A stretch of 64,000 nt of DNA from a bacterium (GTDB lineage: Bacteria > Patescibacteriota > Minisyncoccia > Phycocordibacterales > UBA12445): contig JAUSIP010000001.1 of NCBI GenBank assembly GCA_030648005.1, positions 6,662 to 70,661 of the forward strand. Direction: 5' to 3'. A program made the translations under genes and the position numbers. The notes beneath the pieces were generated by a model. That model did not search any database and had not been told where the DNA came from. It was given only the letters and a program-made list of their open reading frames with translations. Below, piece after piece: positions 3,392 through 55,073 of this stretch (the first letter of the stretch is position 1; every line of letters begins with the position of its first letter).

Positions 3392-5389
3392 CTACTTCGT
3401 CTTGAACTCGTACACACCTTCCCAAGTAGCAGGCGGATGTTCGATGAAGTAAAGTGCACGCTCATTAAGTAACCTCGTTGGGCCGTCGTTTAACTTTTTT
3501 AAAATATCTTCTGTAATCTTCTTAACCTCCTGCCAATCGCCGTTGTAATAAAATCTTCGAGCTTTCTCAAAGTCAGACAAGATCCCCTTCACAGCCTCTT
3601 CCTTCTCTCTCTCGACAACTTCGAAGATCGTGACCGGCAATTTCTTACCTTTAACCTTCACTCTATCCAACTCTCTTATCAAGATCTTCTCTTTCTCTAT
3701 CAGTTCGGCCGGCAGATGATCAAAAGTATGCTGGCTAATAATGATATGCACCCCATAAGTCTTAGTCTGGCCTTCAAGACGCGAAGCGAGATTCACAGTA
3801 TCTCCCATCACAGTGTAGTCAAACTGCTGTTCCGAACCCATATTACCAGCAATCACCTTACCTGAATTCAAACCGATACCTATATCAATAGCCGGATCAC
3901 CTTCTGATACACTCTTCTCATTAAACTTTTTTAGCGCAGTCACCATCTCTAGCGAAGTCAGAACTGCATCCACAGCGTGCATTTTATTGGTAAGTGGAGC
4001 ACCCCAGAAGGCCATAATTGCATCGCCGATATACTTGTCTACAACCCCCCGCTTTTTTAGAGCAATGTCAGTCATTACAGTAAGGTACTTATTTAAGAAA
4101 TGTACCAGCTGTCCGGGAGTGAGGCCTTCAGAAAGATTTGTGAATCCGCGAACATCGGAGAAAAATACAGTGGTCTCTTTCTCGTCTCCGCCAAGCTTAA
4201 TCTTAGACGGATCGCGGAGCATCTCTTCCAGAATATCCCTAGAAACATATTTAGAGAAAAGATTACGCAGGTGATTCTTCTCTTTCTCAACAGTAAAATA
4301 ATGATAGGCGAAAGAGACCAATGAGCCGGAGATCCAGGCCAAGTTAATGTGCACAATGTTCGCAACCTGACCCTCGCCAAAAAGGTAGATGATCGCGACA
4401 TTGTAAAAAATACCCAAGACAACATTTACTCCGAGAGCTTTCCATGGCCGTTCACTAAAAGAGAATAGAAGTGCCGGCAATAATGTGGCAAAAAATATCC
4501 AGAACTCAAGCCAGCCCTCACTGATCGGAGCAAGTTTATAATCCTGCAAGATCATGTTTGCGATCTCCGCCTGGATCTCCACTCCACTCATAGCTGTGCC
4601 TCGCGAGAATGGTGTCGGCTTCTCATCATGCAAATCCGCTGCAGTAGAACCTATAAAAATAATTTTGTTTAAGAGTGGTAGATCAATATTTCCTTCATAA
4701 ACTTTCCAGAAAGGCACCATTGGGAATGATCCGGGCGGACCGGCGAATACGATCCGCTCAATACTCTCTTTGGGGTATGAATTTCTATGGCGAAGTCCGG
4801 CCGACTCGACAGTTTTCAATCCTAACGCCTTATTGATCACCGAACTGTCCGCGATCTCTATCCAAAGTGGAACCCTACGCACTACACCATCACGGTCAAG
4901 TATTAGGTTCACATGTGCCGGCGCAGTTAGAGATACATCAGTTATAATTTTCAGATTTTTCACCAGTGGCGCACCTCTCTCTACAAATGCATGCAAGCCG
5001 TCGATATTCACACTGGTAAATTCAACCGGCATTACCAATGGATATTTCAAACCCTCCATAGCCCTCACAAGAGCCCAATCATCTGCCTCTCCTATACGCG
5101 AAGCCTCCGGAAAGATCACATCTAGACCCACAGACTTCGGCTTATACTGCTCCAGATTGGAGAGTGCCTTAGCAAACACAGCTCGAGGCCACGGCCATTG
5201 GCCGATCTTCTGGATAGATTCGTTATCTATACCAATGATAACTATATCTTTATTAATCTCCTTTTTACTGAAGAGAATATCCTCGAAGAACTGCTCTATC
5301 CCCGAGAAAAGTCCGGCACGAAAAGAGCCGACCAGGATTAAGCCGAGAAATGAGTTTAAAAAATAAAAAAATAATTTTTTCCTATTCAT
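3392..5389 (-). CDS. CHASE2-domain class III adenylate/guanylate cyclase
   Basis: GQWPWPR, DRDGVVRR and GVEIQA (CHASE2); 3 TM helices; FSDVRGFT, DKYIGDAIMAFWG, GDTVNLASRLEG, VKGK. Confidence 0.95.
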   Translation of the reverse strand: MNRKKLFFYFLNSFLGLILVGSFRAGLFSGIEQFFEDILFSKKEINKDIVIIGIDNESIQKIGQWPWPRAVFAKALSNLEQYKPKSVGLDVIFPEASRIGEADDWALVRAMEGLKYPLVMPVEFTSVNIDGLHAFVERGAPLVKNLKIITDVSLTAPAHVNLILDRDGVVRRVPLWIEIADSSVINKALGLKTVESAGLRHRNSYPKESIERIVFAGPPGSFPMVPFWKVYEGNIDLPLLNKIIFIGSTAADLHDEKPTPFSRGTAMSGVEIQAEIANMILQDYKLAPISEGWLEFWIFFATLLPALLFSFSERPWKALGVNVVLGIFYNVAIIYLFGEGQVANIVHINLAWISGSLVSFAYHYFTVEKEKNHLRNLFSKYVSRDILEEMLRDPSKIKLGGDEKETTVFFSDVRGFTNLSEGLTPGQLVHFLNKYLTVMTDIALKKRGVVDKYIGDAIMAFWGAPLTNKMHAVDAVLTSLEMVTALKKFNEKSVSEGDPAIDIGIGLNSGKVIAGNMGSEQQFDYTVMGDTVNLASRLEGQTKTYGVHIIISQHTFDHLPAELIEKEKILIRELDRVKVKGKKLPVTIFEVVEREKEEAVKGILSDFEKARRFYYNGDWQEVKKITEDILKKLNDGPTRLLNERALYFIEHPPATWEGVYEFKTK

Positions 5390-22685: not shown

Positions 22686-22793
22686 GGCCCTATCGTTCCC
22701 GATTTTATTACGATTTCGTTACAGCGAAATCTCCATAAAATCGAGGATCCTCGACCCTGTGGGGTCGGGACTATCGGTTAGGACACGGCCTTT
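22686..22793 (+). pseudogene. tRNA-Glu 5'-half copy interrupted by a 74-nt twin-hairpin insertion (22697-22770)
   Basis: GGCCCTATCGT + insert + CTATCGGTTAGGACACGGCCTTT matches 22931-22964. Confidence 0.85.
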
Positions 22794-22930
22794 GAGAGGT
22801 GAGGATGGGGTAAGGGGTCCCATCCGCAAGACCTTTTGAGGTAGTTTGCGAGCTAGTGAAGCAAAATATCCAAAAGGTGTACTGCTCCCGTAGGGAGGGA
22901 AACGCAGTGAGGCATTTTAAAAAACTATAC

Positions 22931-23002
22931 GGCCCTATCGTCTATCGGTTAGGACACGGCCTTTTCAAGGCTGGAAGCAGAGTTCGACTCTCTGTAGGGT
23001 CA
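22931..23002 (+). tRNA. tRNA-Glu(TTC)
   Basis: Anticodon arm CGGCC-TTTTCAA-GGCTG; T-arm CAGAG-TTCGACT-CTCTG; no encoded CCA. Confidence 0.93.
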
Positions 23003-23022
23003 TTGCGAAGCAAGGAGACTAA

Positions 23023-23158
23023 GTGAATGAACTGCTTCATTCACGCCAGAGAGTCGAAGCCCGATTGAGATAGTTTATGATTCCGAGTTTATCGAGGAAG
23101 AAATAAAATATCCAATTGGGGTACTGTTCCTGTAAGGAACGACTCTCTGTAGGGTCAT
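23023..23158 (+). repeat. tRNA-anchored structured element after tRNA-Glu, ending in a 19-bp direct copy of the tRNA 3' end
   Basis: AACTGCTT hairpin 23023-23044; antisense T-arm 23047-23058; long hairpin; GTAC; TTCCT-GTA-AGGAA; 23140-23158 = 22985-23003. Confidence 0.85.
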
Positions 23159-23172
23159 CGCGAAATACCACC

Positions 23173-24039
23173 ATGACTCATCAAATACTCTTATATTACA
23201 AATATATAAACATCGAGGACCCGGAAGCGCTGATGGCGTGGCAGAAGAAGCTGTGTGAAGAACTTACTCTAAAGGGTAGAATTATAATCGCCAAAGAGGG
23301 AATCAATGGCACGGTCGAAGGCACTAGAGAGAATACTGAAAGGTATATAGAAGCGATGAAGGCTGATCCCCTCTTTGCTGACGTTCACTGGAAGATAAGT
23401 GCGAGTGACGGATTGGCCTTTCCTAAACTATCTATCAAGGTCCGATCAGAGATAGTGAGCGCACATCTTGATGGCGAAGATGTGAATCCGACAGAAGTTA
23501 CCGGCAGACATTTGAATCCTGAAGAACTTCACGAACTTTTAAAAAGCGGCGAGGAAGTTTATGTCGTCGACATGAGGAATGACTATGAACACAGAGTCGG
23601 GCACTTTAAGAATTCAATACTTCCTCCATTAACCAACTTCCGAGATCTGCCGAAAATAATTCCGGAGCTTGAATATTTGAAAGACAAAAAGGTTGTGACA
23701 GTCTGTACTGGCGGCGTGCGGTGTGAGAAAGCTTCCGGCTATCTAATCAAGAAAGGATTTAAAGATGTCAGTCAGTTGAACGGCGGGATTGTATCGTACA
23801 TGGAGAAGTTCCCTAACCAATATTTCAAAGGTAAATTATATGTCTTTGATGGCCGAGTCACGATGGGCTTCGACACCGATAGTCCAGCACACGAAATAAT
23901 CGGACAATGTGATAAGTGTAATAAGCAAAGTGAGAATTACATAAACTGCAACAACAATCTCTGCCATCGCCATTTCATCTGCTGTGTAAACTGCATAGAA
24001 ACAAGCGGAGCCTTCTGCGGGGATCAGTGCAGAAATTGA
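23173..24039 (+). CDS. trhO: tRNA uridine(34) hydroxylase, rhodanese-related (UPF0176/TrhO)
   Basis: LLYYKY, EGINGT, DMRNDYE..GHF, CTGGVRCEKA, GKLYVFDGR; start at MTHQ. Confidence 0.9.
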   Translation: MTHQILLYYKYINIEDPEALMAWQKKLCEELTLKGRIIIAKEGINGTVEGTRENTERYIEAMKADPLFADVHWKISASDGLAFPKLSIKVRSEIVSAHLDGEDVNPTEVTGRHLNPEELHELLKSGEEVYVVDMRNDYEHRVGHFKNSILPPLTNFRDLPKIIPELEYLKDKKVVTVCTGGVRCEKASGYLIKKGFKDVSQLNGGIVSYMEKFPNQYFKGKLYVFDGRVTMGFDTDSPAHEIIGQCDKCNKQSENYINCNNNLCHRHFICCVNCIETSGAFCGDQCRN

Positions 24040-24229: not shown

Positions 24230-24249
24230 CAACGAACGAAGTGAGGCGG

Positions 24250-24366
24250 GCACATGCCTGGACTCGAACCTCGAAAGGGGCCGGGAAAACTGTAGTTTTC
24301 CCGTGGAGGAAGGATTGGGAAAACCGTGGGTTTCCCAGTGTGTGAGTACTCCAGGCATGCGCACCA
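24250..24366 (+). repeat. tRNA-anchored element after tRNA-Val (inverted plus direct 3'-end copies)
   Basis: 24253-24270 is the reverse complement of 24208-24225; 24350-24366 TCCAGGCATGCGCACCA is a direct copy carrying CCA. Confidence 0.8.
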
Positions 24367-29698: not shown

Positions 29699-29726
29699 AA
29701 AAAATCCCCATAAGGGGATTTTTACT

Positions 29727-29955
29727 TGCCGAGGGAGAACGCCAACTGCTTGGCGTTCGTGCGGATTTGAAAGCCACAGCCATGTCCCATGGGGACAGGC
29801 GAGGCGGGGTCGAGAGTACTTAGTCCGCGCAATTTCGCTTTAGCGAAATGAGCAGACTTAGTAACTCGTGACCTAATCCCCCGAAGCTTGGTAAGGACAA
29901 TTTATTTGGAATTAAAATCGGCATAATTAAACAACCGGTTGTTCCCTCGGCACCA
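29727..29955 (+). repeat. tRNA-anchored element after tRNA-Phe
   Basis: Antisense acceptor 29727-29735; AACTGCTT hairpin 29737-29758; antisense T-arm 29761-29771; direct CCCTCGGCACCA at 29944-29955. Confidence 0.8.
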
Positions 29956-30543: not shown

Positions 30544-30689
30544 CAACTCTAAGTGTTAATTCTATATTCGGCCGTCATATTGACGGCTTTTTATTTTTCT
30601 GCCCAAGCGGATAGGTTTGGTATATAGGGAATCACAAGAGACTTCATTAATTCAGTTCTAACATCATCCACCAGAGTGCACCAAACAAA

Positions 30690-30739
30690 AAAAACTCGAA
30701 GTGAGTCTTCCTATACAGGAAGACTCACTTCGAGTTTTT
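30690..30739. repeat. 50-bp palindrome, copy 1
   Basis: AAAAACTCGAAGTGAGTCTTCCT-ATAC-AGGAAGACTCACTTCGAGTTTTT; differs by one base from 44118-44167. Confidence 0.9.
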
Positions 30740-30746
30740 GGGACTT

Positions 30747-31520: not shown

Positions 31521-31630
31521 AGGAATCTCGCCCTACGGGCGCTGGTACTTTTCGCTCCGATATCCATCGGAGAACGAAAAGTCTTTCGATTCCCCGGCGC
31601 AGGCAAAGCAGTTTGCCTGCTCGGGAGCAC
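31521..31630 (-). repeat. tRNA-anchored element after tRNA-Arg
   Basis: Antisense acceptor 31622-31630; AACTGCTT hairpin 31599-31620; antisense T-arm 31585-31593; long hairpin; CGCCC-GTA-GGGCG; short GATTCCT copy. Confidence 0.8.
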
Positions 31631-31654
31631 AAAAAACCGCTCCGCTCTTGTTTG

Positions 31655-33028: not shown

Positions 33029-33156
33029 ATCCTTACAGGATCTGTACACCTTTTGGATATATTCTCGCACAAACTCAAATATATCTCAAAAGGTCTTGCG
33101 GCGCTAAGCGCGCCTCACCTCAGGAAGGTCGCATCCTACCACTGAACTATACCCGC
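33029..33156 (-). pseudogene. 5' half of a different tRNA-Gly (33123-33156) fused to the hairpin-GTAC-GTA module
   Basis: GCGGGTATAGTTCAGTGGTAGGATGCGACCTTCC then GAGGTGAGG...CCGCAAGACCTTTTGAG...ATATCCAAAAGGTGTAC, matching 22796-22882. Confidence 0.8.
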
Positions 33157-44075: not shown

Positions 44076-44117
44076 ATCTAAATTATAACATCACTCCTCC
44101 CAAAACTTATCCACAGT

Positions 44118-44167
44118 AAAAACTCGAAGTGAGTCTTCCTATATAGGAAGACTCACTTCGAGTTTTT
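44118..44167. repeat. 50-bp palindrome, copy 2
   Basis: Near-identical to 30690-30739; abuts the stop codon of the nuclease gene. Confidence 0.9.
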
Positions 44168-45049
44168 TTAGATAATCTCGGCTAGATCTTCGTATGTATC
44201 TTCCTTCGGAATAATGTAGATATCCTGCCCATACCCTCCAGTGCCGACATACTCCGCCTCGCCATTAAGTACCGCCTCGAAGTCCTGACAGGCGAAACAT
44301 CCCTCCTCACCTCGTGGACAATCGAACTCCTTCGCCAGCCGTGCCGCCTTAACCTTTCGAGCAACTGTTAAAACTTTCTCCTTCGCTTCAGTTAAATCCG
44401 GTATCTTCATTGACGTTAGTTCATCGCTTCGGTCTAAGTACCAGTAGGCTACGCCGGAAACTTTCCTTTTTTGCAGAGCATTAAGTAGGAGCATGTATAT
44501 TGGCAACTGAAGGGAACCTTCCCCCTCGTCATGTTTACCAGTTTTAAAATCAATCACCACAATACTGTCATCTTCAGGCTTGTACTCCATCCAATCGATC
44601 AATCCGCACAAAATAATATTCTCATCCTCTGACAAATAAAAGTTTGGTGGCATGCCGTTGTGTCCATCCTTTAGTCTGACTGTTTTCTTAGCTAAAGGTC
44701 CCGGATGTTTTATGGCTCGCTCGATCATCGCCTTACCTCGTGCCTTCGCCTCCGCTTCCTCTTCCGCTGACTGGAATCCGCCCTTTTTGCCAGACACCTT
44801 CATCCAAGCCACTTCATAATCCTCCAGCAAGTTCCTCTTTAGTCGTTCTTCGGTCGGTATCGTTTTTAAATTCTCCAACACTTCATGCACCGCCGTACCC
44901 AGCGACAACGCCGGACTTATGACCGCAATCTTCCGCCCGCTCTTCGGATCCTTGTAGACATTCTTAAGAAAGTAAGCGCGCGGACACTTCAAGAAGTCCC
45001 CCATCGAAGAGTGTGATACCCAGACTGCGGTGTATTTGTCTTGCGGCAC
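44168..45049 (-). CDS. PD-(D/E)XK nuclease family protein (RecB/AddB/Cas4-like, probable Fe-S)
   Basis: SHSS...CPR, GTAVHEVLE, GLID, IDFKTG, QLPIY, C-terminal CPRGEEGCFAC. Confidence 0.85.
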   Translation of the reverse strand: MPQDKYTAVWVSHSSMGDFLKCPRAYFLKNVYKDPKSGRKIAVISPALSLGTAVHEVLENLKTIPTEERLKRNLLEDYEVAWMKVSGKKGGFQSAEEEAEAKARGKAMIERAIKHPGPLAKKTVRLKDGHNGMPPNFYLSEDENIILCGLIDWMEYKPEDDSIVVIDFKTGKHDEGEGSLQLPIYMLLLNALQKRKVSGVAYWYLDRSDELTSMKIPDLTEAKEKVLTVARKVKAARLAKEFDCPRGEEGCFACQDFEAVLNGEAEYVGTGGYGQDIYIIPKEDTYEDLAEII

Positions 45050-53545: not shown

Positions 53546-53652
53546 CCTCTCCTTTTGGAATTTCTAAACTAACCTTACCAAATATTTATATATTATAAAA
53601 GACCCCCATCTTTTGCTTTTTTAGTAATAATTTGATATATTTTACTTCATAT

Positions 53653-53728
53653 TCCTCGGTAGTCCCGATTCGATTCATCGAATCGAGGATCCCGACAGGG
53701 GTCGGGACTCAGTGGTTTAGTTGTTAAC
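53653..53728 (+). pseudogene. tRNA-Asn 5' fragment interrupted by a 45-nt twin-hairpin insertion (53663-53707)
   Basis: TCCTCGGTAG + insert + CTCAGTGGT...TGTTAAC matches the intact tRNA-Asn downstream. Confidence 0.8.
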
Positions 53729-53735
53729 TTAATAT

Positions 53736-53810: not shown

Positions 53811-53948
53811 AGTGAGCGAAGCGAACGCTCCACGAGCAAGCAAACTGCTTTGCTTGCGTGGTAGGATTCGAAAAGGTTCTCCGTTATCCGATGGCAATCG
53901 GATCGGAAACCTGTACCGTTCATGTAATGAAAGAATCCTTCTAAAAAA

Positions 53949-54566
53949 ATGAAAAACCCCAAAGTAATAATCTACGACAACGACGGAATGATCTGCCATA
54001 GTGGCCGATTTAGCGACAGTTATTCTAAGGAGTTTGGGATTGAGATGGATATAATGAGTCCCTTTTTCGAAGGACCATTTAAAAACTGTCTCGTTGGAAA
54101 AGCAGACCTGAAAGAGGAGTTAGAAAAAGTTTTAGATATATGGAACTGGAAAGGGACAGCCAACCAGCTTCTTGATTACTGGTTTTCAGTAGGAAGCACG
54201 CTCGACGAGAAAGTTTTCCCTACTATTTCAAAATTTAAAGATCAAGGTCTAATAGTATGTCTGGCAACTAATCAGGAAAAATATCGAAAAGAATATTTAG
54301 TTACAAAATTTGGATACGACAAAGTATTTAATGAAATCTTTTCTTCTGCAGAACTAGGCGCTTATAAGAACAGCGAGAAGGGTCTCCAAAAAACTTTCGA
54401 CATCTTGAAAGATAAATATGGCATTGAAGATAGAGACGAGATCATGTACTGGGATGACCGAGAAGGAAATGTTGAACATATAAATCAGTTTGGTATGAAC
54501 GGTCAGCATTATAAAAATTATGAGGAGTTTAGGGATGTAATGGCCGGTCTTGGCTACTTAGTTTAA
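53949..54566 (+). CDS. HAD-superfamily hydrolase
   Basis: IIYDNDG (DxD), LATNQ, FSSAELG..K, YWDD. Confidence 0.88.
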   Translation: MKNPKVIIYDNDGMICHSGRFSDSYSKEFGIEMDIMSPFFEGPFKNCLVGKADLKEELEKVLDIWNWKGTANQLLDYWFSVGSTLDEKVFPTISKFKDQGLIVCLATNQEKYRKEYLVTKFGYDKVFNEIFSSAELGAYKNSEKGLQKTFDILKDKYGIEDRDEIMYWDDREGNVEHINQFGMNGQHYKNYEEFRDVMAGLGYLV

Positions 54567-54570
54567 TTTT

Positions 54571-54972
54571 ATGCAAAATAAAACAACTCACGAATCATTT
54601 GTTTTAAGACAATCCACACTTCCAAGTGCAGGAATCGGAGTGATTACCTTACACGACATAGCCAAGGGTACATATATGGAGCTTTTTCGTGATGGTTTTG
54701 AGGAGGAAATTAGGGATGAGTCTGATGTGCCGAAGCCACTCAGGGCATACTGTCTCTATCAGGGTAATGGCAAGATCTTATGTCCAAAAATGTTCAATCG
54801 TATGGATATCGGAAATTATCTCAATCACTCAGAGAACTGGAATATGGTCTATGAAAAAGGCAGGGGTTACTTTGCTTCTCGAGATATTAGAGCCGGAGAG
54901 GAACTCTTTGCCAACTATAGAGATCTGGGAGAGCCCGAAGACCAGAGAGAGGAGTATTACAAGGTGCATTAA
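54571..54972 (+). CDS. SET-domain protein (lysine methyltransferase-like)
   Basis: SAGIGV, YLNHS, RDIRAGEELFANY. Confidence 0.88.
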   Translation: MQNKTTHESFVLRQSTLPSAGIGVITLHDIAKGTYMELFRDGFEEEIRDESDVPKPLRAYCLYQGNGKILCPKMFNRMDIGNYLNHSENWNMVYEKGRGYFASRDIRAGEELFANYRDLGEPEDQREEYYKVH

Positions 54973-55073
54973 TACTTTGACCTTCAGCATTTCTTGGAGC
55001 AGAGCGAGTACGATGCGAAAGGTGTACTGTTCCCGTAATGAAAGAATCCTACCCGGGGAGCAAAAATAAAATA

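Follow-up and report, generated by a model that had tools for sequence, protein, structure and literature searches.

A stretch of 64,000 nucleotides (hereafter, the window) contains, directly behind tRNA-Glu(TTC), a structured sequence that includes an antisense copy of a part of that tRNA. What is this sequence, and how did it obtain a piece of its neighbor? A sequence-only reading had reported four such sites, behind the tRNA genes for Glu, Phe, Arg and Asn. It proposed a non-autonomous element or recombination site family targeting tRNA T-loops through folded single strands or guide-like pairing, or a cis-antisense control of tRNA maturation. ARAGORN detected seven tRNA genes in the window, and a fifth member, missed in that reading, was found behind tRNA-Val(GAC) (Table 1).

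Structure of the elements and their junction with tRNA

The unit consists of, in order, the tRNA tail, a linker hairpin, the antisense acceptor, hairpin 1, the antisense T-arm, a scaffold, and the tRNA tail again. The four hairpins with 7-bp arms and the starts of the four antisense T-arms were found exactly where the sequence-only reading had placed them. The octamer taken there as an invariant hairpin core is its commonest variant. What is conserved is the CTGC loop, seen in 31 of 50 hairpin 1 loops with closing pairs of several kinds. The octamer alone is not significant in the window (5 matches vs. 2.4 expected; 12 of 100 shuffles reach 5). Four of these five matches, however, form the stem and are no more than 60 nt away from a tRNA end.

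Table 1. Coordinates of the tRNA-linked elements and related sequences in the window.
Feature	Position	Strand	Remark
tRNA-Glu(TTC)	22931..23002	+	host of element 1; ARAGORN
Glu linker	23003..23022	+	GNA mini-hairpin and decayed antisense acceptor strand
Glu hairpin 1	23023..23044	+	CTGC loop
Glu antisense T-arm	23047..23058	+	own T-stem 3' strand and T-loop (positions 54-65), 12/12
Glu scaffold	23059..23140	+	long hairpin, AC linker, GTA-triloop hairpin
Glu direct copy	23141..23157	+	tRNA 3' end, restart at T-loop position 57
tRNA-Val(GAC) element	24231..24364	+	contiguous antisense, scaffold of other type
Val antisense T-arm part	24257-24268	+
Val direct copy	24349-24364	+
tRNA-Phe element	29699..29879	+	terminator at the start; third scaffold type and short resumption after the antisense T-arm
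Phe antisense acceptor	29727-29734	+
Phe hairpin 1	29737-29758	+
Phe antisense T-arm	29761-29771	+
Phe 3' copy	29944-29955		12 nt, beyond the element
tRNA-Arg(CCT) element	31521..31653	-	linker at the start; scaffold and 7-nt direct copy after the antisense T-arm
Arg antisense acceptor	31622-31630	-
Arg hairpin 1	31599-31620	-
Arg antisense T-arm	31585-31596	-
Arg GTA hairpin	31528-31542	-	holds 14-mer common to E. coli TLRs
tRNA-Asn element	53811..53939	+	linker at the start; scaffold and 7-nt direct copy after the antisense T-arm
Asn antisense acceptor	53827-53834	+
Asn hairpin 1	53836-53857	+
Asn antisense T-arm	53860-53872	+
Asn GTA hairpin	53918-53932	+
Asn cargo	53949..54972	+	two genes between two right-end modules
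Second Asn scaffold and right end	54979..55061	+
Asn direct copy	55044-55061		18 nt of tRNA 3' end, beyond both cargo genes
Dead 5' copy of tRNA-Glu	22686..22897	+	broken by palindromic MITE
Scaffold without antisense	22799-22897		ends the dead tRNA-Glu copy; same scaffold as Glu element
Dead 5' half of tRNA-Gly	33029..33156	-	followed by antisense-less form of the same scaffold

At the right end, a long hairpin is joined through AC to a hairpin of 5 bp, with covarying arms. The loop of the 5-bp hairpin is GTA in 72 of 73 distinct right-end hairpins. Both hairpins had been described correctly for Glu, Arg and Asn, but the GTAC between them is not invariant; only AC is fixed, the two bases before it (GT/AT/GC/TC variants) being paired within the long hairpin. 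The direct tRNA copy claimed for the same three elements is 17 nt long in Glu but just 7 nt in Arg and in the first copy of Asn. Three-helix junctions from 20 copies were compared, and both sides were changed in 12 of 19 pairs, a number that relatedness inflates. None of 500 shuffles and none of the slid controls reached it, which supports a non-random, tRNA-anchored family with covarying structure.

Host positions 57-59 follow 115 of 121 right ends, the first two positions being fixed by the search pattern. A good direct copy (at least 11/12) is kept in 44 of 81 GTDB elements among the matches listed. In 57 of the 121 right ends, the direct copy breaks exactly after position 59, often via an insertion of 1-2 nt or a small hairpin. 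These breaks cluster three bases from the first junction. Type IA topoisomerases prefer to cut with C at minus 4, and a staggered cut or such a C-at-minus-4 cutter could be behind the breaks.

The antisense arm follows its own tRNA, as had been claimed; the scaffold of Phe is a different one. The tracking was analyzed with 81 GTDB elements directly behind a tRNA, among the matches listed. At five free positions of the T-stem, the match to the reverse complement of the host 3' strand was 4.64/5, against 2.90 after permutation (maximum 3.26 in 5000 permutations), and 65 of the 81 T-stems were perfect. Position 59 matched in 95% (33% permuted), and the acceptor part matched at 5.65/7 (2.54 permuted). 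G-T wobble positions favored an antisense of the 3' strand over a copy of the 5' strand by 12:2 and 20:1 (32:3 together). The arm matched the upstream over the downstream copy by 45:1, a ratio biased by the selection rule and not counted as evidence.

GNA triloops are found in 44 of 144 cases on the top strand vs. 2 on the bottom strand; the same right-end hairpin accounts for 30 of these 44. GNA loops are especially stable in DNA, and their distribution points to a folded DNA form. The loop of hairpin 1 fits what we take to be the motif of stable DNA loops on the bottom strand, not on the top strand. No replication-strand bias was detected by GC skew (52% vs. 52%). In the contigs of the probable source run, the Glu element has no differences, which is not independent support, and no excised or joined form was seen.

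Several other features lie close to the elements. The UPF0176/rhodanese gene (window 23174-24039) has its ATG 16 nt past the Glu element, and a longer listed frame begins inside the element. Of the two cargo proteins of Asn, one (205 aa) has no Pfam hit and the other (133 aa) is a SET-domain protein. Upstream of the tRNA-Asn gene there is a dead 5' tRNA-Asn fragment (window 53650-53735); two congeners (L478 and L479) have a small GIY-YIG gene where this genome has the fragment. A palindromic MITE family with ~20 sites in this genome (window 22696-22770 and 53663-53707) is inserted in dead 5' copies of tRNAs and also between genes. At locus L229, the apex of a MITE-type hairpin contains a small GIY-YIG gene, and the target duplication is long; this suggests that L229 is the autonomous form of the MITE family. 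AT-rich palindromes at 30688-30741 and 44116-44169 gave weak scores with the element covariance model and are not linked to tRNA.

Distribution and exchange of modules

A sequence-free test, requiring at least 10/12 match to the reverse complement of the tRNA's own positions 54-65 within 130 nt, detected an antisense T-arm downstream of 19 of 40 parsed tRNAs in this genome (0 in the reversed control). Two of these 19, Leu-TAA and Gln-CTG, appear doubtful. Unlike the octamer alone, its combination with a 7-bp stem and a tRNA end is above chance. Stem-bearing octamer hairpins number 14 in the 757-kb genome: 12 directly behind tRNA or tmRNA, in line with the proposed association with tRNA ends, one in a stacked array, and one elsewhere. 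A CTGC hairpin with a 9-bp stem on contig C16 (near 4361, minus strand) is beside a terminator, not beside any called tRNA. Members without the CTGC hairpin are common (Val, Asp, Lys and Gly-TCC). Contig C3 (37354-37441) contains a tRNA-Ser with anticodon ACT by ARAGORN, which is found in metagenome loci too.

The exact-pattern scan of GTDB revealed at least 118 loci. Among the matches listed, the stem is present in 113 of 123, and 90 of these have a tRNA within 400 nt upstream. Their record titles are mostly of Patescibacteria, and also of Elusimicrobia, Chlamydiae, Verrucomicrobia and Betaproteobacteria. The CTGC-hairpin form was observed in 21 of 121 genomes of the window's class (control 0), and the commonest scaffold type in 28 of 41 relatives. 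In IMG/VR, the stem was present in 1 of 88 viral loci, in a coding context, and the right-end pattern had 2 matches; phage and plasmid records gave no element match. The antisense-less scaffold is also seen inside 5S rRNA fragments, SRM/REP-like hairpins, and right ends of other units (contig C8 of this genome, ~4250-4650; L395, L401, L431, L432, L531 and L535). One 5' fragment holding it is presumably rnhB-like.

The constant modules tend to follow the genome, not the tRNA type, judging from their sequence similarity in ten genomes that had been picked for many copies and that are kin. For 18 of 44 scaffolds, the most similar one was in the same genome (12% expected), and for 4 of 44 it was behind a tRNA for the same amino acid (7% expected). 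The tendency is weaker for hairpin 1 (17 of 50 and 1 of 50) and for the linker (17 of 47 and 2 of 47), with 17% and 7% expected for both modules. The clearest pair is in this genome. The Glu scaffold and the scaffold of tRNA-Ser(TGA) on contig C2 are identical at 85 of 89 nt, with two compensatory changes among the four differences. Each of the two antisense arms nevertheless fits its own tRNA at 12/12. As near-identical scaffolds are present with different arms at different tRNAs, the arm must have been either written or corrected at each locus; this speaks against a guide fixed beforehand.

Among congeners, units have been gained and lost, stacked, and exchanged for others, and some of them enclose cargo genes. 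In a comparison of four congeners and one family member, with orthology based on anticodon and not on synteny, the tRNAs for Asn, Glu, Arg and Phe were empty, decayed, stacked, or occupied by another scaffold. The empty alleles sought in relatives thus exist. At Glu, two congeners have a common linker, with the T-stem and the antisense arm changed together. One GTDB locus has four genes between two units. The cargo at one Saccharibacteria locus encodes one UDG-like protein and three proteins without assignment.

Comparison with known repeats and the search for an enzyme

No description of this family was found in the literature covered, which includes few subscription papers. The statement that the elements belong to no described family holds in that no Rfam model scores them, but the tRNA-linked repeats of E. 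coli (TLR or RtT, RF00391) share their layout. TLRs, known since 1978 and still functionless, are directly behind tRNA genes, are often stacked, and have at their end 18 nt copied from the tail of the preceding tRNA (PMC8144298). Three TLRs in rRNA operons are transcribed, processed, and bind Hfq and CsrA; the part of that paper used here mentions neither an antisense arm nor mobility (PMC8144298). In our analysis, the TLRs of the tyr and lys loci of E. coli score as RtT, and 8 of 9 TLR copies contain antisense to positions 59-68 of their own tRNA (9-10/10; 6-7 in the reversed control). The RtT consensus pairs this antisense arm with the tail copy. The 14-nt right-end hairpin occurs five times in two E. 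coli loci and three times in this genome, all within elements (0.005 expected). The presence of TLRs varies within E. coli; one lys TLR was detected, at 80% cover, in 3243 of the 5426 genomes of this species.

Both groups thus sit directly downstream of tRNA genes and have an antisense arm that pairs with the tail copy around internal hairpins. The end is 18-19 bp in TLRs, and here it is 17-18 nt (Glu and second Asn) or 7 nt (Arg and first Asn). Unlike in TLRs, the antisense here covers the whole T-loop and the acceptor and is split by the CTGC hairpin, about half of all tRNAs are occupied, and several scaffold types are used. RF00391 gave no hit above its gathering cut-off (45 bits) in 41 genomes (best 18.1 bits) and none in the window or in 20 element loci, and reciprocally the element covariance model finds no TLR. 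With the whole of Rfam, the window gave nothing but tRNAs, and the 20 element loci nothing but weak generic hairpin matches. The TLR right-end pattern had no match in a set of 301 genomes around a betaproteobacterial bin. The models are blind to each other, and therefore the elements are considered TLR-like in working and not members of RF00391. The elements look like distant cousins of the TLRs, and much more abundant ones, whether by common descent or by convergence.

Hairpin repeats are the sites at which Ssn GIY-YIG nucleases cut ssDNA (PMC11893778); the main text of that paper does not contain the word "tRNA". The SRM repeats of these nucleases, and REP/BIME with TnpA-REP, are similar to the elements in being gene-less hairpin repeats in mosaic, stacked arrays, with putative ssDNA handling by a small nuclease acting in trans (PMC11893778, PMC3333891). 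The antisense-less scaffold was found inserted in SRM-like repeats. Unlike the elements, these repeats are fixed in sequence, contain nothing derived from a target, and lie on either side of the gene for their nuclease. Membership in Ssn/SRM was rejected because the units flank no small GIY-YIG gene and only the site and right-end pieces are common. Membership in REP/BIME was rejected because there is no invariant GTAG-type foot tetranucleotide, GTAC varies, and the Y1 genes have other palindromes.

Genomic islands at tRNA T-loops have att duplications of the 3' tail. The elements are similar to them in the restored gene, the duplicated tail and the occasional cargo, and differ in the lack of an integrase, the inverted third copy, the length of 100-200 nt and the many tRNAs occupied per genome. 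Peel-and-paste insertion makes no target duplication. The duplicated target, the rewritten pairing arm and the lack of a linked Y1 gene exclude the elements from IS200/IS605. No match by eye was found to what we take to be the attC core consensus, and there are no fixed recombinase arms, the paired arm varying with each tRNA, which excludes IMEX and integrons. Retroelements or retrozymes were rejected as RT is unassociated and no ribozyme family appeared in Rfam scans. The three-way topology is like that of hammerhead ribozymes, but such a reading was rejected because the core sequence is absent. A pure inverted triplication leaves the scaffold and the sense-strand resumption at 57 unexplained.

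Three systems nevertheless offer partial likenesses. In IS200/IS605 transposons such as IS608, a short linker at the 5' foot of the hairpin can pair with the target, and engineered IS608 uses 8-13 extra base pairs for targeting; the elements are a natural counterpart of this extended pairing (PMC5934647). CTX forms its attachment site, attP(+), from two inverted copies ~90 nt apart, which fold in ssDNA as the two inverted target copies here would, and after its integration one site works and two are dead (PMC3089051). The Asn cargo pair with its scaffold resembles an integron gene cassette. The elements differ from CTX and integrons in that the target differs per tRNA, there is no cis integrase, and phage and plasmid collections lack them.

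The units have no gene of their own, so the suggestion of a non-autonomous element stands, but the co-occurring recombinase, HUH or RT gene looked for with it did not appear. There was no mobility gene inside 115 right-end loci and no mobility family among the neighbors of the GTDB loci listed, which were housekeeping families. This genome encodes one Xer-type recombinase and three Y1 proteins, along with two serine recombinases and two RTs; its sole GIY-YIG frame is 417 aa long. Two large frames for serine recombinases terminate at or close to tRNA-His and tRNA-Gln, which are on the strand opposite to them (contigs C14, 1-2100, and C8, 55700-56990). The three Y1 (RAYT-like) genes (L002, L003 and L004) are each flanked by their own perfect palindrome pair. 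Neither a tRNA nor an element module was found at 29 Y1 loci, and the presence of Y1 is unrelated to that of the elements (18 of 27 positive vs. 8 of 13 negative relatives). RT shows no association either (6 of 21 positive vs. 38 of 100 negative genomes).

Small GIY-YIG genes were analyzed across the phylum. A tRNA or tmRNA adjoins 82 of 158, never on the opposite strand only, and 47 of the 158 are downstream of a tRNA. A direct copy of the tRNA tail follows five, with T-loop resumption in four. Their tree, with few columns, shows partial grouping by target tRNA. Two of the loci have a right-end piece in common with the Ser-TGA locus of this genome, and at the gene-less locus L481 a GIY-type left end is joined to the GTA right end of the family. 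In none of the 158 cases does the gene lie between an antisense arm and a right end. Seven element-bearing genomes including this one (73-100% complete where given) have no small GIY-YIG gene, and GIY-YIG counts are 3.4 in 21 positive vs. 3.8 in 100 negative genomes.

Possible origin of the elements

The explanation we prefer, with a probability of roughly 0.58, is that the elements are gene-less cassettes of ~100-200 nt, inserted at the tRNA T-loop as folded ssDNA, whose tRNA-matching parts come from the target. The cassette would enter between C56 and G57 of a tRNA or tmRNA gene and leave the gene intact. Its active form would be the top strand, folded into a three-way junction where the antisense arm may pair with either copy of the tRNA tail. 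The single-stranded T-loop would be nicked by an enzyme acting in trans, and host DNA synthesis after the nick would switch between the donor unit and the target. In this way, the target may serve as the template for both the antisense arm and the second copy, or as the reference for their correction. The arm would be the best-kept part because it then hides the T-loop site in the duplex. Within this explanation, a small Ssn-like GIY-YIG nuclease is the leading candidate for the nicking enzyme, an identification that is possible rather than probable.

It is unlikely that the elements arose with no dedicated enzyme, that is, by template switching during replication at terminator or T-arm hairpins, which would make the inverted and direct copies, and by spread of hairpin modules through gene conversion or slippage at short shared ends. 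Template switching can make and repair perfect stems (PMC8794818), many linkers are indeed long perfect palindromes running into the acceptor, and slippage between direct copies could yield tandem stacks. It would also fit the failure to find a cis or co-occurring mobility gene. However, passive correction should keep the near arm better, and the reverse is observed: the far arm in the T-stem is matched at 93% and the acceptor arm next to the loop at 81%. Moreover, the junction is fixed between 56 and 57 across scaffolds and phyla, and linkers follow the genome despite their tRNA-specific flanks. Selection of the tRNA by a pre-existing guide arm, whether by toehold pairing, IS608-like peel-and-paste, or a CTX-like site used by the host Xer, appears less probable again. 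The near-identical scaffolds of Glu and Ser-TGA differ in their arms, and therefore the arm cannot pre-date the choice of the target in moves between tRNAs; the guide-like pairing proposed from the sequence is disfavored in this form. Insertion of the elements duplicates the target, unlike peel-and-paste, there are no fixed recombinase arms, and the Y1 genes, with palindromes of their own, show no link to tRNA or to the elements. What speaks for a guide is that the antisense arm covers three additional bases in the intact T-loop compared with the junction of its own element, that the genome has the Xer-type gene and three Y1 genes, and that engineered IS608 pairing (PMC5934647) and the folded CTX site (PMC3089051) are precedents.

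A role as RNA, in which the unit is transcribed with the tRNA and sequesters its 3' half or is freed as a small RNA, is the least probable of the alternatives. The predicted folds are strong as DNA and as RNA (RNA z -5 to -12), Rfam treats RtT as RNA, and some E. coli TLRs are processed and bind Hfq and CsrA (PMC8144298). By a crude rule, however, 37 of 81 linkers, which precede the antisense arm, resemble intrinsic terminators, and the dominant loops are DNA-type triloops, not GNRA or UNCG tetraloops. Both points weaken the cis-antisense control of tRNA maturation suggested earlier. The same tRNA does without a unit in congeners, and the distribution of RT gives no support.

The analysis of modules within genomes, the negative co-occurrence tests, and the direct comparison with TLRs are new. 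We tentatively raise the possibility, held with less confidence than the cassette explanation itself, that the elements represent a new class of prokaryotic mobile elements, with no gene, no fixed target site, a pairing arm rewritten for each tRNA upon ssDNA insertion, and possible cargo, and with TLR/RtT as outliers. The cassette explanation offers a concrete origin for repeats that have had no function assigned since 1978 (PMC8144298). The question is testable in laboratory E. coli, which carries both TLRs and the small GIY-YIG gene yhbQ. The tail duplications mimic att sites of islands and break assemblies at tRNAs. If true, target-templated rewriting would be a new insertion chemistry and a route for gene addition at tRNA ends in very small genomes.
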